Positions 4,608 to 51,800 of a stretch of 64,000 bases of DNA are shown here, one piece after another. The stretch's first letter is position 1; every line of letters begins with the position of its first letter. Made by a program: the position numbers and the translations under genes. The notes under the pieces were generated by a model, which was not told the DNA's origin, ran no database searches, and worked only from the letters and a program-made list of their open reading frames with translations. The stretch is taken from assembly GCF_006345805.1 (NCBI RefSeq), contig NC_042999.1:77066001-77130000 (forward strand). Reading direction: 5' to 3'. This stretch comes from Octopus sinensis. Lineage: Eukaryota.

Positions 4608-5687
4608 ATGAATAAATCAGATTCTGAACGTTTGACTGCTTTTAACCAACAGGAAGTCGAAAAGCACCTAGCTATTATTACTCTTTTATCCATTTTTATG
4701 ATAATGGGTATTATTGGTAATAGTTTAATAGTCTACATTCATATTTGCAAATTAAATCGAACAGCATCCACTTTGCTTATTATTTTCTTTGGCTGGAGTC
4801 AAATTTTTACCAGCGCGATATGTATACCAATGGATATTGTTTTCCTTCTTTATTCATATATTTTCACAAATAGCTTTCTTTGTCGTATTATGCAGTCTAC
4901 CATTTTTATGTCAGCTTTTGTATCAGGATTGATAATATTCACAATTGCTATAGATCGGTTTAAAAGAGTATGCCGGCCGTTTGCAACACAATTTAATCGT
5001 AAGGATGTCAAGAAGCTCATCTGGTTAAACATTGTAATAACGACTATACCGATGACTGTCAACTTTTATGTTTGTGGAATTAAAAAAATTCCCTTGTATA
5101 ATAACTTAATCGGTCACATGTGCTCAATGTCAGATAAAGCAAATCCACGTGTGGTATACAGTTTCTTCATTTTTATGCTAGTACTATGCGTGGTGTTAGT
5201 GCTGACGTTCATCATAATTTATTCTACAATATTTATGAAGCTGAGGGAATACAGTAAACGTAAGAGATTGTTGGCCTCCCTTCAACCGTCAATTTCAAAA
5301 GTTAGTGAAATAACCTCGTCGAGAGAGGAACATTTAGAACCAACGATAAGTAAAGATTCATTATTCCAACCCATGCAACGCAGAAGATATTATATTGCCA
5401 CAACCCGAATCACATTCAATATGTTTTGTATAACTCTTTCATGGTGTCTTACCTACATTCCTTATTTCACAGTAACTTTCTTAACTACAAAAATAAATGT
5501 CAGAAGAGTCGGTTGGAAACCTACTGAGGACATATTTTATGAAATAGCTGATCATTCTTACTATATAAACGCTGTCATCATTCCAATAATTTACGTAATC
5601 TTCAACCCACCTTTCAGGAGAGAAGTTATTACCCTCTTCAAACGATATATTTTGTGCACCATAAGTAATAAACCAGACGAAAATTAG
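4608..5687 (+). CDS. Intronless class A (rhodopsin-like) GPCR, peptide-receptor-like (CCK/orexin-receptor-like), ~359 aa
   Basis: Seven hydrophobic segments; TM1 GN (GIIGNSLIV), Cys at top of TM3 (FLCRI), AIDRF, ECL2 Cys, TM6 TYIPYF, TM7 IPIIY, helix 8 FRREV. The ORF opens at 4542, but a splice acceptor (ttttacctcttacag, ends 4579) precedes ATG 4608, which is followed by an N-K-S sequon. Confidence 0.9.
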   Translation: MNKSDSERLTAFNQQEVEKHLAIITLLSIFMIMGIIGNSLIVYIHICKLNRTASTLLIIFFGWSQIFTSAICIPMDIVFLLYSYIFTNSFLCRIMQSTIFMSAFVSGLIIFTIAIDRFKRVCRPFATQFNRKDVKKLIWLNIVITTIPMTVNFYVCGIKKIPLYNNLIGHMCSMSDKANPRVVYSFFIFMLVLCVVLVLTFIIIYSTIFMKLREYSKRKRLLASLQPSISKVSEITSSREEHLEPTISKDSLFQPMQRRRYYIATTRITFNMFCITLSWCLTYIPYFTVTFLTTKINVRRVGWKPTEDIFYEIADHSYYINAVIIPIIYVIFNPPFRREVITLFKRYILCTISNKPDEN

Positions 5688-6272
5688 TGTATGCATTGTT
5701 GTTGTTTTGTAACCCCAGGTCAGTATAGACCGAGTGAAACCTATAGAAATTAATCGAAGAACTCAATGGGATCCACGGGTCAGTTGTCTAGTAGAAGATA
5801 TTGTCTGTTCATTCATAAAATGCTTTATCCTTTAGGGTGCTATCAAATTACCCGGGGTGTAGCGTTCACCTTTTATCTGTTTTCTTTTACTTGTTTCAGT
5901 CATTTAGGCGAATGAATTGAGCCTAGTATTTTTTCCGTAAGCCTGGCACTTATTCCGAACCGCTAGATATGGGGACACACCAACACCAGTTATCAAGCGG
6001 CAGTGGAGGATAAGCACAGACGCAAACACACACACATACACACACATATTTGTATATATATATATATATATATATATTGGCCTGCTCGCTTAGCCAGCGG
6101 GGTAGCATCATTTGAAGCGCATTGTGACCAGCGATGTGTAGCAACATCTGATAGCCTGATCGATCACGGTGATCACAGTGATATATATATATACATACAT
6201 ATACATAGAAATATCATTATTTCTAAATTTCTAATTCTCTCTAAAGGAGACTACGGCAGCGGTACTGAATAT

Positions 6273-6600
6273 TAATAGTTACCGCTAAGTGGTAGTCCAG
6301 AAAAACAGGACGAATGATGAGGTTGATTAGCTCCAAGAGGCCATCACCTCTAGCTAGCTGTGTGACACACAAACTGAGTCCATTATAACCTTATAGCAGG
6401 GGAGGTTAGCAGGTTCCCCTTGCTGGTCTGGCAACCACAGACTAGTTTCGAGGTGGTTGCCTCTTATCAATGTGGAGTAGCCGAACCCAACAGGCGTCGC
6501 TGCAGACCGACAAACTAGAGGCGATGGCCTCTTCGAGCTAATCAACGGCAGCATTCGTTTATTTTTCTGAACTGCCATGTTAGCTTAGCGATAACTATTA
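6273..6600 (-). mobile_element. Fold-back Penelope-pLTR/retrozyme-like repeat, diverged relative of the 355-bp unit at 11371-14875
   Basis: Imperfect inverted arms ~6273-6353 / ~6516-6600 (gttgattagctccaagaggccatcacctctag vs ctagaggcgatggcctcttcgagctaatcaac); colinear similarity to 11371-11610. Confidence 0.7.
6435..6475 (-). ncRNA. Minimal type-I hammerhead ribozyme motif (U3-A8 core variant)
   Basis: Minus strand: ccaca TTGATAA gagg caacca cctc GAAA ctag TC tgtgg. Confidence 0.7.
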
Positions 6601-6819
6601 ACATATATATATATTATGCACGTACGCTGCGAAATATATAATAAACCTTTACGTAAATAAATAACGTGATATACACGAAGGGACGAACAAAAAGACAAAC
6701 GGGTTATTCAAAGCCTTCATTCTTCAGTCAGAAACTGATCCCTCATCGCAGATTTCGGCTGTTTAATTCTGAGATCCGCTCTGAATCAGCCAGCCACTAT
6801 CCAACATTGGTGTCTCTGG

Positions 6820-8013
6820 AAAGTTACTGAAATGGATCAAGTGTTTCCTGACAGACAGATCTCAACATGTTGTAGTTGAAGGGATAAAATCAAGCCCAGC
6901 CAAAGTCAGTAGTGGCGTTCCGCAAGGCACTGTGCTGGGCCCACTTCTTTTCATCATCTACATTAATGACATTAATGACATCATCAAGCACAGCAACATA
7001 AAAATCTTTGCAGATGATTCCAAGCTCCAGAAGGTCATAAATGAGGCGAGTGACCGGACATGCCTTCAGTCAGATCTACTGGCTGTTATCCAATGGGCAG
7101 AAAAAAACAATATGCTGCTGAACGAGGATAAATTTGAGTTAATCCACTTTGGAAAAGAGGATGCCCTGAAACTCCCATACTCCCTTCCTTCAGGTGAAAC
7201 TCTCGTGGCATCCAACAACATCAGAGACTTGGGAGTAATTGTGGACAACATAAGCTGGGCCACTCATATAAAAACCAAAGTTGACATGGCCCGCAGAATG
7301 TGTTCCTGGATTCTCAGAACTTTCCAGTCGAGAGATATCCACACCATTATCTTTCTCTTCTCCACTTTTGCCCGACACCACCTTGAATACTGTTGTCCAC
7401 TGTGGTCTCCCCACACAAAACAAAGTATCATAAAAGTTGAAGCACCTCAAAGGGCAATCACAAAAAAGATAGATGGCATGACAGGCCTCGACTATTGGGG
7501 TCGACTAGAAAAGCTAAAACTTTATTCTCTCCAACGTCGCCGTGAGCGCTGCATCATCTGCATGATGTGGAAAATATTCCATCAGCATTGCCCAAATGAT
7601 GTTGGCATCACCTTTAAGGTACATCCAAGGCTTGGGCCCCGTGCCATCCGCCCAAAACAAAAATCGCACTCTCATCTCATAACAACAATACGACACAATT
7701 ATTTCACCTCAATTGGCCCCGCTCTCTTTAACATTACACCAAAACACATTAAAACAGAAACAGACCCAATAGGGTTCAAGAAGTCTTTGGACAGATTCCT
7801 TCAAGAAATCCCGGATAAATCCCCTACACCCGGATATGTCTCTGTAAACAATAACTCTCTACTTGAGTGGGCCATAGTGCCCAAATTCTGACTTGAAAGA
7901 CTTCACCAGGTGGTGCTATTAAGTTAGACATGGCCTGGGCCAATAATGGCCAAAACCTTTCTAAGTTATTCTAAGTTATACTGGCCAAAACCTTTCTAAG
8001 TTATTCTAAGTTA
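6820..8013 (+). mobile_element. 5'-truncated CR1/L2-group LINE (RT C-terminal half, ORF 6932-7891)
   Basis: GVPQGTVLGPLLFIIYIND, FADDSKL, RDLGVIVD, HLEYCCPLWSP, LYSLQRRRER; 3' tail tggccaaaacctttctaagttattctaagttata tandemly duplicated at 7948-8014. Confidence 0.9.
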
Positions 8014-11370: not shown

Positions 11371-12184
11371 ATAGTTATCGCCATACTAATATGGCATTCT
11401 TATAAAAATAAGAATAAAGCTGTCCGCTTATTAGCTCCATGAGGCCATCGCCTTAAGTTAGCTATTTGATACACAAACTGTATCCATATAACCTTTGAAC
11501 AAGGGAGGTCAGTCGCTCCACACTACTTGGCCGGCAGCTACAGACGCGTTTCGGGGTATTGCCCCTTTTCAATGCAGCGTAGCCATACCAGTAGGTGTCG
11601 CTTCTGACGATCTCTGTTCAAAGGTTTTATTTACCTAGCTTCGGTGGAATACATCCACTTGTTTTCAATAATAGAAATATTAAAATTACTAAAAAGGGGC
11701 AATACCCCGAAACGCGTCTGTAGCTGCCGGCCAAGTAGTGTGGAGCGACTGACCTCCCTTGTTCAAAGGTTATATGGATACAGTTTGTGTATCAAATAGC
11801 TAACTTAAGGCGATGGCCTCATGGAGCTAATAAGCGGACAGCTTTATTCTTATTTTTATAAGAATGCCATACCCCGAAACGCGTCTGTAGCTGCCGGCCA
11901 AGTAGTAGTGTTCAAAGGTTATATGGATACAGTTTGTGTATCAAATAGCTAACTTAAGGCGATGGCCTCATGGAGCTAATAAGCGGACAGCTTTATTCTT
12001 ATTTTTATAAGAATGCCATATTAGTATGGCGATAACTATTATTTTCCGGGAACGCTGCCGTTGTTCTCTTTTAGAGAGACTTAGTAATTTTAATATTTCT
12101 ATTATTGAAAACAAGTGGATGTATTCCACCGAAGCTAGGTAAATAAAACCTTTGAACAGAGATCGTCAGAAGCGACACCTACTG
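11371..12184. repeat. Inverted plus direct copies of a ~355-bp hammerhead-containing unit (Penelope pLTR/retrozyme-like)
   Basis: 11371-11690 is an inverted copy (hammerhead motif on the minus strand at 11537-11578), followed by forward partial copies from 11691 and 11870 running to 12184. Confidence 0.85.
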
Positions 12185-14224
12185 TGTTAGCAGAAAGGTT
12201 GAAGGTCGTCATGGAAAAACTTGTCGGAAAGGCACAGACATGTGCAATCCCAGGCAGGTCGATCGAAGATAATCTTCACCTTCTACGCTACACTATAGAC
12301 AGGGTTGGGCAATTAGCCGGCAAAGGAGGGGCATTGGTCCATTTAGACCAAAGTAAAGCATTTGATAGGGTAGATCATCAGTACTTGGCGACGGTTCTCG
12401 AAGCGGCTGGGCTAGGTCCTGACTTTCGCGGGTGGATATCAGCTATGTACAGCGGTATCAAGTCCACAGTCCAGATAAACGGTTACTTAACGGAACCGTT
12501 TTCGATTAAGCGTTCAGTTCGTCAAGGATGTCCCTTGTCCCCTCTCCTGTACGTTTTGGCTCTTGAGCCATTGCTGCGAAGTTGGAGACGGTGAGATGCA
12601 ATCCTAATGAAATCGGATGCGGTAAGTCTGTTTCTGCGTATGCGGATGACGTCACCTTCATCGTGTCCAACGAAGCACAACTAACTCGTGTAGAAGGTGC
12701 TCTCCGAAGATACGAAGCGGTGGCTGGGGCAAAAGTTAACAAGGACAAGTCCACTGGTTTGCGCCTCGGCACCTGGAGGAACAAGCCGATATCGTCCAGT
12801 GTTGTTGGACACTGGACAGATGGTCCTGTTAAATTGCTTGGAGTTTGGTTTGGTTCAGACTCCCAGACGGAGAAAAATTGGAGCGAGGTAGTGACCAAGG
12901 TAGAAGCCATAGCTCGGGAGTGGTCCGGAAGGCATCTTTCCTTGAAAGGGAGGGCGGAGGTGGTACAGGTGTTTATAGCATCTGTAATCACCTATCGCCT
13001 GACTGTCGTGCCTTGCCCCGATTTGTGGCTAAGCAAGTTGGATCGACTCCTTTTCCGCTTTTTGTGGAAGGGAGGAAAGCCACTTGTAAGGCGCTCCGTG
13101 TGTTGCCAGGAACCACTAAAGGGTGGGCTGGGGATGCCTTGGTTAATGATGCGCAGGCATGCGCTGAGACTGAGACATCTCTGGTTTCACCTGGAAGGTG
13201 ATAAGGTGTGGAGTCCGCTGGCAGATAATTTCTTCCCGCAACCGGACTCTATGGAGAGATTTAAACCCGGTTTCATTAAAAGACGGAACCTGACTTTATG
13301 GCAGAAAGAGTGCCGACAGGCACTCTGGCTGATCCACAAGATAGGCAAAGCCGGTTGCGGGAATACCACCTCGACATTTTATAGAAGGATGGTAGAGGCA
13401 AAAAATGACGACGTCCTAAGGGGCTCTGGGGTTCGATGAGGATCAACTATCCGACCTGTTTAAGAAGACTTTCAAGCGGGGTATTTGGACAATTACCAAA
13501 AATCCCTGACTTGGCAGTGCTATAGGAATGCTCTACCTGTTCGCGATAAGTTATATAGGCATGGAATGTCAGTGCCACCGACATGTCCAAGATGTGGGTT
13601 GGACGATGAAACCGTCCAGCACGCTTTTGTACATTGTCAGGAGCTGTCAGGCTTAATAAGTTACGTAGAACACGTGTTGTCGCATCTGGGACGAGTACAG
13701 CTATCGGCTGGTTCTATAATAAAGATGATACCGCCAGCTGGACTCTCAAAGGAAGGTGAGGCTTGTTTTCACTGTACGGTGGCAGTACTGAAAGAGTGTG
13801 TGTGGAGAACTAGATTGGAAGGTTTGGTGTCAGGAACCTTTGTCTCTGGATATGGTATGTTAAAATACTTCAGATACCATCTAAAGAGCAAGATGGATTT
13901 AGAGTAGAGGACCTGACACAGAAAAAGTATGTGAATCGATGGAAGGATGTGATAAAAAAGGTGGGTGTGAGTAACCCTGCTTGGTCATCATGAAGGGAGA
14001 AAATAGTCTCTGGGCTCTTAGGCTGTCGGGTAAGAATCCTGACTGTGATATACCTAGCTGGCCAAAATCATTTTTAATTTTTTAAAAAAAAAGGAGAAAG
14101 TAAAGTCTAGTATCATAATCAATAATCAACATGTAAATATCAAACGAACAACGTAAACTTTTTGTAATTATGTTTTGTATTGTAATGTACTATTTCTGTA
14201 AATTTTTATAATCATAATTATTTT
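12185..14224 (+). mobile_element. 5'-truncated Tx1-like (L1-group) LINE with 17-bp target-site duplication
   Basis: RT motifs AIPGRSIEDNL, LDQSKAFDRVDH, SVRQGCPLSPLLY, AYADD; C-terminal CPRC..ETVQHAFVHC knuckle; frameshifts near 12590 and 13430; TSD agaagcgacacctactg at 12168-12184 and 14225-14241. Confidence 0.9.
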
Positions 14225-14251
14225 AGAAGCGACACCTACTGGTCTGGCTAC

Positions 14252-14293
14252 GCTGCATTGAAAAGGGGCAATACCCCGAAACGCGTCTGTAGC
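14252..14293 (+). ncRNA. Minimal type-I hammerhead ribozyme motif (U3-A8 variant), predicted cleavage after 14287
   Basis: gctgca TTGAAAA gggg caata cccc GAAA cgcg TC tgtagc. Confidence 0.7.
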
Positions 14294-14606
14294 TGCCGGC
14301 CAAGTAGTGTGGAGCGACTGACCTCCCTTTTCAAGGTTATATGGATACAGTTTGTGTATCAAATAGCTAACTTAAGGCGATGGCCTCATGGAGCTAATAG
14401 CGGACAGCTTTATTCTTATTTTTATAAGAATGCCATATTAGTATGGCGATAACTATATTTTCCGGGAACGCTGCCGTGTTCTCTTTAAGAGACTTAGTAA
14501 TTTTAATATTTCTATTATTGAAAACAAGTGGATGTATTCCACCGACGCTAGGTAATAAAACCTTTGAACAGAGATCGTCAGAAGCGACACCTACTGGTCT
14601 GGCTAC

Positions 14607-14648
14607 GCTGCATTGAAAAGGGGCAATACCCCGAAACGCGTCTGTAGC
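14607..14648 (+). ncRNA. Minimal type-I hammerhead ribozyme motif (U3-A8 variant), predicted cleavage after 14642
   Basis: Identical motif to 14252-14293. Confidence 0.7.
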
Positions 14649-14924
14649 TGCCGGCCAAGTAGTGTGGAGCGACTGACCTCCCTTGTTCAAAGATTATATG
14701 GATACAGTTTGTGTATCAAATAGCTAACTTAAGGCGATGGCCTCATGGAGCTATAAGCGGACAGCTTTATTCTTATTTTTATAAGAATGCCATATTAGTA
14801 TGGCGATAACTATTTTTCCGGGAACGCTGCCGTTGTCTCTTTTAGAGAGACTTAGTAATTTTAATATTTCTATTATATATATATATATTTATAATATATT
14901 TATTATATATATATATACATATAT

Positions 14925-48800: not shown

Positions 48801-51800
48801 TATTTTACTTTTTTATTTCATTGCTAATAACTTGGCTTTTAACATCTCAACTGTCAGATATATAATAGTAAAATATTGATTTTTTTTTTTTTACTATTAT
48901 AAATATTTTGTTTTACTGTAGTTACATTTGCAGCTGTTCAAAATTCTATTTTTCATGTCATTTGGTATGAGATTATAGCATTAGTTTTTAGTCTTTTCCC
49001 TCATTTAGCATAAACTAAATGAGATTTGTGAAGTATATTTGCCATCTAAATATGGCTAACCACTAAGGGTGGATGTTACTGTAGCTTGTAGCCCCAGGAG
49101 AACATCTCCAGCTGGCTATTGACAAACTTTCTGTGCCCTATTGGTATTTGCAAAGGGAAGCCACCCTTCCCATCGTCAACCTACATGATATGCACAGACC
49201 CGGGTTTCTGGTTATTGACCTGTCATCAGCGCACAACAATCACTGGTCTTCAATGCGAAAGGGGTCCCAATGCAAATACATATATCCTTTTTCCAATGAC
49301 TTTTCGTCACTGATCTTTAAAAAGTGTAAACAAGCAATAATAAATCTCTGAACAAGGTATAGACAGTAGGTCACATAGGTCGACGATGGGAAGGGGGGGC
49401 TTCCCTTTGCAAATACTGATAGGGCACAGAAAGTGTGTCAATAGCCAGCTGGAGATGTTCTCCTGGGGCTACAGTAACATCCACCCTTAATGGTTAGCCA
49501 TATTTAGATGGCAAATATACTTCACACTGTCGCGCAGTTACTGTCTATACCTCGTTCAGAGATTTATTATTAGATGAGATTTCATTTTCATTTAAACCTA
49601 GTTTTCTTGACATCAACAATGTTTCTTTAACCCATTGCATTTTGGGAGGCATTGCAAACCTTGTAGTGATTCATAGAAATATACTTCTGTGGTTTCCTGC
49701 ACCCAGCTCATCGAAGGGTTTGAAACATTGCTATTAAAGTATCTCATAAACTTAATGCACATTTCATATATTAGCTAAGAGATCTTCTACATAGCCATTT
49801 GACCAGCTAAATGTAACAGCCATATCTCCCCAATTACACTCTGTCTTAAAACAGTGGAGTGTAATTTGACAATTCTTAAGATTCCACTATCTTCAAAACA
49901 GAAAAGATACATCTGGATAGTCATAACAGGAATATCTCTGACTGTATGACTGCTCAGACAATTCTACTATAATAATCTTTTCTACTATAAGCACAAGGCT
50001 CTGAAAGAATGAATGGCAAAGTCAACCTCAGCAGAATTTGAACTCAGAACATAAAGACGGGTGAAATGCCGCTAAGCATTTTGTGTGGAGTGCTAACAAT
50101 TCTGCCAGCTTGCTTACCTTCAAAAGCTACCTTCTCAAGTAATGCAGACTCATAAGGGCTGATTTCTATGGTGTATAAATTCGCCACCTGAATGGGACAT
50201 CAGTCCGTCAAAGGATTACCCATTTTTGCCAGCTGAGTGAACTGAAGCAACATGAAATGAAATGTTTTGCTCAAGAACATAATACGTCGCCTGGTCCAGA
50301 ATTCAAAATCATAATCTTTTAATCATGAGTCCAACACCTTAACCACTAAGCCATACATCTCCGCACAATTCTACTATAATAATAATATGTTTGTTTTTGG
50401 TTAATCTTTTTTTAGGTGTGGACATTGCCAATCCTTTAAACCTGAATTCACTAAAGCTGCTGAAATTTTAAAGGTAAGCACATTTGGCATTAGGGAAGGT
50501 ATCCAGCCATAGAAACTTTACCAAATCAGACTGGAATTTGGTGCAGCTCTCCAGCTTACCTATTCTACTATAACCCATGGGACAGCAGACGTTAAATGAT
50601 GATGATATGTAATGAAAACTAAATTCTTTTTTCAGTTCCCCCTTTTTTACTTAAGTAAAGTTACTGTTTCCCAATATTAACTGCTTTCTATGCCAGTGTA
50701 AATAAGAGATTTGCCACTTGAGCATCATCATCATCATCATCATCTAAAGCCCATCTTCTATGCTGGCATGAGTGTTTTTGTTAGGATTCATGGGTCTGAG
50801 GACTGCATTCTATTCCAATGTCTGCTTTGGCATAGTTTCTACAGCTGGATGTCCTTCCTAATGCTGACCACTTACATCTACTGCATGCTTTTTTGATGAC
50901 ACCAACACCAGTGAGGTTACCATACAGTTCATAAGGCTATGGTCTCCTTCAACTGAGTGGGACTAGAGTAGAATAAAGTAGCTTTAGCTTGAAGAAAATG
51001 GGTTAAAATATGAAAAAAAAAGTGGCGTCGGGATAGAACAGGTTTCTTGCTGTAGAGGAGATACATAGCTACTCACATAAGAGAAGAGTGGATAGAAGTA
51101 ACTGGAATGGAGTTGGAAAGAGATAAAATACAGGTGATGAATAGGCCTCGAGGCATGTGGTGAGTGGAGACAGAAGAAGGAGTGTGTATGGGTAGAAGCT
51201 GTAAAAGTATATGGTGTGAGTGGTTAGAGATGGGGGATGGATGAGGTGGTGAATATAATGAAGAACAGGAGTTGAGTGATTGATGGTAAATACATGGAGG
51301 GAAGGTAGAGAAGAGTAAGTGATGACTAAAGATTTGATAAGGTCCAGGGTTGGAAGTAGTGAATGGTGGACAAGATTGGAGAGGTGATCAATGATCATAT
51401 ATGATGTGGACAAAGTAGGGAAGATGAGCTAACTTACAGTACAGAAGTGGGTGAAGAGTAGCAGAATAGTAATAATAATACAGTAGACAGTAAGGATGAG
51501 AGAGATGATGTGTATGGATAGGTTGCATGCATGGAGAGAATTAGAGATGTATAGTGATTGAAGAGGAGAGATAATCTAGTAGCACAGAAGAGTGATCAGT
51601 GTAAAATGTGTGTGGTGAGAGGCAATCATTATCATCATCAAACATCCGTTCTCCATGCTGGCATGGGTTGGACAGTTTGACAGAGACTGTTCAGACTCCA
51701 ACTGTCTGTTGTGGCATGGTTTCTACAGCTGGATGCTCTTCCTAAAACCAACTACTTTAGAGTGTGCTGGGTATTATATACCACCAGCAATATTAAGACT

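Follow-up and report, generated by a model that had tools for sequence, protein, structure and literature searches.

Within the window, the 64,000-nt stretch of Octopus sinensis contig NC_042999.1 analyzed here (positions 77,066,001 to 77,130,000 of the forward strand), an old, two-armed insertion of a short repeat occupies about positions 6205 to 6600. It is antisense to a GPCR-type gene and lies ~520 bp past the stop of an open 318-aa 7tm_1 frame (4731 to 5687, plus strand); downstream follows a LINE reverse-transcriptase fragment (about 6785 to 7888, plus strand). With unit positions numbered from the predicted cleavage site of the repeat, the 5'-truncated sense arm (6205 to 6511, minus strand) finishes in (AT)n-type DNA at its tail (long) end, unit position ~236, and carries a ~63-nt tail (6205 to 6270, minus strand) that is confined to this arm, while the inverted arm (6515 to 6600, plus strand) finishes at the short end, unit position ~174, before (AT)n. 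The sense arm is 89% identical to the consensus of what we call subfamily A and has a 6-nt deletion within a conserved hairpin; the inverted arm shows 94% identity to that consensus and 80% to the sense arm. The copy amounts to less than one unit and has no tandem partner.

The sense arm contains a type I hammerhead motif, reading ccaca-TTGATAA-gagg caacca cctc-GAAA-ctag-TC-tgtgg from 6475 to 6435 on the minus strand, and re-reading the letters bore out both the sequence and the place given in the original prediction. With its outer stem (GGC/GCC), a TAC bulge, and helices I and II, the motif extends over 6430 to 6482 and is composed of the core at 6470 to 6464 (U3...A8), helix II at 6463 to 6450, the GAAA at 6449 to 6446, and a self-complementary helix III hexamer, ACTAGT (6441 to 6446), for which pairing between two ribozymes is predicted. 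Judging from hammerhead numbering, the predicted cut lies 3' of the GUC triplet, where 6440 adjoins 6439. Helix I has 6 bp in the family, of which the window copy retains five; at the sixth (6476/6434) it has U-U, with U where other copies read A. Rfam scans of the window returned AT-repeat noise alone and no hammerhead match, and the Rfam hammerhead model had no match in a 151-nt stretch with the motif even at E ≤ 10, a miss that may result from the variant core and the absent helix III.

A motif scan of the window identified four motifs in which positions 3 and 8 are complementary and helix III is short, at 6470 (minus), 11572 (minus), 14258 (plus), and 14613 (plus); a covariance model matches all four, largely by construction. 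The latter three read ctgca-TTGAAAA-gggg caata cccc-GAAA-cgcg-TC-tgtag. Across 180 to 290 nt the 6.2-kb copy is 70 to 74% identical to the other window copies and is, as had been claimed, a diverged homolog of the 14.2-kb unit. The differences in stem I, stem II, and the palindrome likewise read in both sequences as described, and the cores differ solely at position 7, with U3 and A8 unchanged. The unit length of 355 bp needs refinement: the true unit is 361 to 363 nt, and the 355-nt unit in the window reflects small deletions.

The 11572, 14258, and 14613 motifs belong to one young insertion of subfamily B. Its left part (11371 to 12184) comprises an inverted arm (short end, 11371), the hammerhead at 11572 on the minus strand, and rearranged sense pieces; its right part (14225 to 14876, plus strand) consists of tandem units with the hammerheads at 14258 and 14613 and has its tail end, at unit position 238, within (AT)n. 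The two parts are split by a young, 5'-truncated zf-RVT (L1/Tx1-like) LINE (12185 to 14224, plus strand) that is flanked by a 17-bp target duplication (12168 to 12184 and 14225 to 14241). In all 25 copies of this LINE that we examined (L218 to L242), the 3' end adjoins one particular position of the retrozyme, immediately before the hammerhead, although two of them run on into what is apparently another LINE copy; the element appears to be site specific for the retrozyme. At L029 and L152, a related LINE borders A-type copies at a point a few bases farther along. Elsewhere in the window, a distant member of family E, whose core is C3-G8 and whose helix III palindrome spans 6 nt, lies at 49171 to 49244 (minus strand; weak model match, E = 0.0097), within two partial units in tandem at 49020 to 49500 (minus strand); family E also occurs at L117 and L138.

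The 2.7-Gb genome, which is rich in (AT)n, contains 2,181 first-look candidates of subfamily A, the best at 78 to 89% identity, and 1,158 of subfamily B at 96 to 97% identity, the latter in tandem arrays of 362- to 363-nt units with at least eight in a row and with young units 96 to 98% identical. A core-anchored U3-A8 pattern had 2,726 exact genome matches (1,406 + 1,320) versus none in a reversed control, and these matches also revealed subfamily C. The corresponding C3-G8 pattern had 523 matches versus 5 in the control, part of which are families D and E, both homologous to A; D (C3-G8) is 62 to 64% identical to A over ~190 nt. The period is 361 nt in A and about 350 in D, and A, C, and D together span 346 to 365 nt. 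The TAC bulge and a loop 2 beginning with CAA are kept across A to D and may correspond to the tertiary contacts between loops 1 and 2 of Schistosoma hammerheads. Across 90 loci, no open reading frame of at least 200 aa lies inside an array, and RT and GIY-YIG domains are absent from the unit; one frame begins at the end of a unit and continues into low-complexity flank. Subfamilies A, B, C, D, and E are homologous repeats with a conserved core, covarying helices, and units in tandem. The retrozyme sequence is present in sequencing runs of 7 organisms; 14 runs presumed to be RNA contain 26 to 34% of its sequence words. Contigs from four of the organisms, compared with A and B, carry no information on strand, ends, or circles. 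Among the matches listed in a literature search on octopus hammerheads, nothing concerned this retrozyme family.

With subfamily groups defined on sequence downstream of the ribozyme, the A and B consensuses differ by 9 substitutions among 24 helix bases and yet preserve 12 of 12 pairs, whereas none of 12 core bases has changed against 20% divergence downstream. Retention of all pairs by chance has a simulated probability between 8.5e-5 and 4.7e-3, depending on the transition bias. Among 19 copies hand-picked to span the subfamilies, 93.8% of cells pair versus 77.1% in shuffles that ignore relatedness (0 of 500 reach the observed value), and the covariation score is 0.526 versus 0.216 in the shuffles and at most 0.10 in slid controls; pairs with a double change number 11 of 17 versus 8.7 in shuffles, a value that 27 of 500 shuffles reach and that is therefore not beyond chance. 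Compensatory change beyond chance is accordingly upheld, both between the A and B consensuses and among the 19 copies, but the "full" covariation of the original prediction overstates it, as the 12 pairs include 4 double changes and 1 wobble (A-U to G-U). Exceptions at the consensus level are a C-A at the helix II base in D and a G-A at helix I pair 6 in C2.

We also placed the pair changes on trees by parsimony, using 116 of 121 segments. Family E and three truncated segments were dropped, and E is excluded from the pair counts as well because the alignment slips at its 6-nt palindrome. On a tree built from downstream sequence alone, pairs were kept 26 times and broken 6 times on internal branches but kept 36 times and broken 41 times on terminal branches (P = 0.0013); on a whole-segment tree, which includes the helices, the corresponding counts were 23 and 6 versus 18 and 41. 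The 3-8 pair is UA in 13 and CG in 6 of the 19 copies, is never unpaired, and changes once on the tree, from C-G to U-A or back. Since an older family that is homologous carries the canonical C3-G8 core, covariation extends to the 3-8 pair. The subfamily consensuses thus covary and hold positions 3 and 8 paired, the two points that had been named as decisive against the prediction if they failed. The motif is of the type I hammerhead kind, its covariation is genuine, and catalysis by the family is a prediction; a literature search for activity data on the C3U/G8A change found nothing relevant.

Covariation in helices I and II bears out that much of the claim of changes in three helices, but the third case is different in kind. 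Between A and B the inner part of helix III changes from cg-cg to ct-ag. Because these inner bases form a 2-nt loop in the monomer, the change reports pairing between two ribozymes rather than a third helix in cis. Our U3-A8 pattern fixes the outer C and G of CNNG and leaves the inner NN free, and by manual count, with array units counted singly, the CNNG proved palindromic in 96 of the first 100 matches listed. All four such palindromes (CGCG, CATG, CTAG, and CCGG) were found, and the 4 nonpalindromic matches (CTGG once and CGTG three times) are still able to pair via G-U; CTAG and CATG were exchanged on two internal branches. A 1-bp helix III in cis is predicted to cost 4.5 to 5.6 kcal/mol, and a hexamer duplex to yield −4.8 to −7.5, so that by these predicted energies the palindrome would pair fully solely between two ribozymes. 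A dimer design with a palindromic helix III has already been published (PMC4209133; PMC6765202), as has the U3-A8 core, for motifs of Penelope-like elements (PLEs) of Schistosoma (PMC4209133).

The boundaries of the insertions follow a simple rule. They end at unit position ~174 (short) or ~237 (tail), ~63 nt apart and mostly before (AT)n, and never at the predicted cleavage site; the window copy, with ends at 236 and 174, conforms. A census of 124 loci, corresponding to 97 distinct places, comprised 62 two-armed and 32 one-armed insertions and 3 that run off the edge of the locus. The query favored two-armed copies in the A sample but not in the B sample. Among two-armed insertions, 50 of 62 combine a short with a tail end, none combines like with like, and 12 have one end elsewhere; 30 of the 32 one-armed insertions end at either fixed site. 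Insertions are 5' truncated, and the inverted part varies in length and junction. Both arms of one insertion carry the same variants: among the 60 units compared, those on opposite arms of one B insertion are 0.65 substitutions apart (17 pairs), compared with 7.04 between loci (1,691 pairs) and 2.85 between same-strand units within arrays. Some arrays show variant patterns with periods of 2 and 4 units; patterns of period 4, period 2, and period 1 were seen among arrays L055, L057, L058, and L048. By eye, some A copies that lie outside microsatellites have short direct repeats on either side. In an informal comparison, small hairpins immediately before both end sites (unit positions ~145 to 165 and ~195 to 235) persist from A through E and show paired changes (GCCA/TGGC versus GTCA/TGAC); they are candidates for recognition by a reverse transcriptase.

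Two-ended insertions with an inverted arm have been described as typical of PLEs, whose published tail is 30 to 40 bp (PMC8557442). In an in vitro study, AT-rich DNA was cut on both strands by a PLE protein, which initiated at two sites within the RNA, and these sites delimit the tail (PMC11167929). The octopus genome contains a young PLE family, encoding RT and GIY-YIG domains in 781 aa, that likewise has two ends, an inverted arm, and (AT)n flanks, with a tail of ~40 nt as opposed to ~63 nt in the retrozyme. A Penelope-like RT/endonuclease therefore likely copies the retrozyme in trans into (AT)n DNA.

The young PLE family (L136, L137, L143, L144, and L176 to L187) has a 479-aa open reading frame upstream of the 781-aa one, which includes a CX4CXXC linker, is Neptune/Nematis-like, and exists in several intact-frame copies at 98 to 99% identity; ~70 nt ahead of the family's short end there is a minimal U3-A8 hammerhead-like motif whose helix I is weak. 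Minimal hammerhead-like motifs with the palindromes GCGC, CCGG, and GTAC are also found at the GIY-YIG loci L103, L104, L105, L138, L141, L145, and L146, and as most of them are U3-A8, this variant is widespread in the genome. Several PLE families, several of them with U3-A8 minimal motifs and palindromes, were considered as the retrozyme's partner, and none is similar to the unit. In 41 GIY-YIG-anchored loci, a small sample of 5,029 candidates, no similarity of the B unit to PLE ends was found, the matches being separate retrozyme insertions or AT-rich noise, and the covariance model matched no retrozyme-like terminal repeat in 7 PLE loci.

The unit folds well as a predicted circle (z = −6.3 and −5.7, 60 shuffles), with strong predicted self-pairing that joins both sides of the predicted cleavage site, and in 20 of 28 natural one-period monomers the predicted probability of helix I is at least 0.9; taken by itself, the 91-nt motif stretch has a fold no more stable than that of shuffles (z = −0.72). 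In the predicted fold of the truncated window arm, a segment 85 to 115 nt downstream blocks the ribozyme. We rejected a conserved switch, as this block forms in the truncated arm and is mostly absent in natural full-period monomers.

Taken together, we read the stretch, with a probability of roughly 80%, as a decayed, two-armed insertion of a ~361-nt non-LTR retrozyme with a U3-A8 hammerhead motif, whose source elements were likely under selection and which was likely copied in trans by a Penelope-like enzyme. In the cycle that we propose, neighboring hammerheads in a multimeric transcript would pair with each other by way of the palindrome. Cleavage 3' of GUC would then free a monomer, which a host ligase would close. 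The predicted circle keeps helices I and II and lacks a stable helix III and so would not cut itself. A PLE protein would then nick both strands of an AT-rich target and begin reverse transcription within one RNA at two positions; by traveling around the circle, or by reading an uncut multimer, it would produce the tandem and inverted arms. After insertion, copies accumulate mutations that do not preserve the helix pairs. The divergence between units within arrays and the period-2 and period-4 patterns are not expected from a monomeric circle alone, and array periods of 4, 2, and 1 could reflect templates of that many units or blocks duplicated afterward. A bolder version, to which we give slightly less than even odds, is that a single lineage underwent a natural 3-8 swap (C-G to U-A) and repeated palindrome swaps, that a Penelope-type enzyme copies one RNA circle, whether monomeric, dimeric, or tetrameric, from a pair of fixed starts onto both strands of one AT-rich cut, recognizing structure and not a shared terminal sequence, and that a LINE homes to a site upstream of the ribozyme.

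The strongest competitor to circle copying, though in our judgment an unlikely one, keeps the same element and PLE machinery and takes an uncut linear multimer as the template, so that no circle is copied and the ribozyme serves to free read-through RNA or acts with the help of a protein. Insertion ends that avoid the cleavage site would suit such a template, heterogeneous units within an array could derive from a heterogeneous source array, and in the PLE assay uncut RNA was dominant and the hammerhead needed protein (PMC11167929). Hammerhead mutants in that assay still inserted, with uncut RNA as the main template (PMC11167929), so that a circle is not required. The exact period-2 and period-4 variant repeats, however, fit repeated reading of one closed template, as do homogeneous arrays of at least five units with a private variant on both arms (L048). 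The strong predicted self-pairing across the cleavage site also argues for circles, which are abundant for other metazoan retrozymes (PMC7229834).

A second alternative is that the host has kept the 6.2- to 6.6-kb copy as a working ribozyme, for example, for the neighboring GPCR gene. The short distance from the stop of the 7tm_1 frame would suit it, as would the core of the A copies in our first sample, which showed 1 private change versus 7.2 expected (P = 0.006). This deficit fades, however, in copies picked by downstream sequence (2 versus 5.9 expected, P = 0.067; 22 arms, 20 of 30 loci; for the 10 new A loci alone, 1 versus 2.0, P = 0.39), is absent from family D (5 versus 4.0), and does not extend to the helices of A copies, where private changes are as frequent as in the rest of the unit. 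The motif is intact in just 13 of 29 A copies, and the window copy is a lone ribozyme, antisense to the GPCR gene, with a broken helix I pair, the 6-nt deletion, and 11% divergence from the consensus. We therefore consider host maintenance improbable. The copy itself is ordinary decayed repeat DNA, and its single ribozyme motif is probably inert. Since copies mostly break pairs when they mutate and the window copy has decayed, we assign the covariation to the mobile sources, and selection for self-cleavage in those elements is the likely explanation of the paired changes that separate subfamilies. The claim of selection on RNA structure thus applies to source elements during amplification but, on this evidence, not to the copy that prompted it.

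Spread as DNA is a still poorer account. The window copy resembles a terminal inverted repeat element, and a preprint on Xenopus retrozymes invokes local tandem expansion by unequal crossover (bioRxiv 10.64898/2026.07.22.740005), so that the family might be a satellite or a foldback (MITE-like) repeat, its arrays the product of unequal crossover and its hammerhead a relic of a PLE end. The fixed rule of short and tail ends contradicts this reading and, in our view, largely refutes it: the two ends are different, copies are 5' truncated, the inverted part varies in length and junction, and both arms share variants. Pairs kept on internal and broken on terminal branches would also be unexpected of a relic. 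Chance resemblance to a hammerhead, for which one might cite the Rfam miss and the unremarkable fold of the 91-nt stretch, is negligible given the 2,726 pattern matches versus none in the control, the covariation, and the canonical C3-G8 core in homologous families.

The retrozyme class, the U3-A8 core, and the dimer palindrome are already known. The movement of animal retrozymes has so far been a proposal from co-occurrence with PLEs and terminal homology (PMC7229834; bioRxiv 10.64898/2026.07.22.740005), to which the octopus family adds evidence at the level of insertion junctions; the main texts that we had of the literature on retrozymes, Penelope, and hammerheads do not contain the insertion-end signature. 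The open question of mobilization becomes testable through the insertion-end evidence and the 3-8 swap inside one lineage, as one genome offers young units, two mapped start sites, and intact PLE reading frames as test substrates. The subfamily series further amounts to a natural mutagenesis of a dimer-dependent hammerhead, covering the 3-8 pair, four palindromes, and G-U intermediates, and the palindrome swaps, if true, would leave subfamilies unable to activate one another.

By the features tested, all of them read from sequence, the element is a metazoan non-LTR retrozyme. Like those described previously (PMC7229834), it consists of short, noncoding tandem units (350 to 390 bp in mussel, 330/350 bp in axolotl), each with one type I hammerhead whose weak palindromic helix III would act as a dimer, and its predicted circle is self-paired with the ribozyme helices free; PLEs were named there as candidate mobilizers. 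Those retrozymes are C3-G8 and their expression and cleavage have been demonstrated, whereas the octopus element is U3-A8 and known from sequence; neither U3-A8 nor the two-site ends, tail, and inverted arms appear in the available part of that paper (PMC7229834). With PLE hammerheads (about 1,300 matches in Schistosoma; PMC4209133), it shares the U3-A8 core, the small palindromic helix III, the dimer model, and pairs of motifs on opposite strands 100 to 700 bp apart. Those motifs, however, are minimal, with a long helix II and a short helix I, and lie in PLE terminal repeats, in contrast to the 6-bp helix I, 4-bp helix II, and tandem units without a reading frame of the octopus family, which also has C3-G8 and U3-A8 forms within one homologous lineage. 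With PLE anatomy (PMC8557442; PMC11167929), it has in common 5' truncation, partial tandems, an inverted 5' arm, a tail at one end, AT-rich or (TA)n targets, and two internal start sites, and non-autonomous multicopy derivatives such as MRC1 are known there too; it differs from PLEs in having no RT/GIY-YIG reading frame and in a tail of about 63 nt, not 30 to 40. That retrozymes are mobilized by or derived from PLEs is also the conclusion of the Xenopus preprint (bioRxiv 10.64898/2026.07.22.740005), in which 1 of 9 predicted retrozyme dimers cleaved in vitro. Its evidence is co-occurrence and pLTR homology, and it favors later tandem expansion; the words "tail" and "inversion" do not occur in its available text. 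In the octopus, where pLTR homology was not found in the PLE loci sampled, the evidence comes from the insertion ends.
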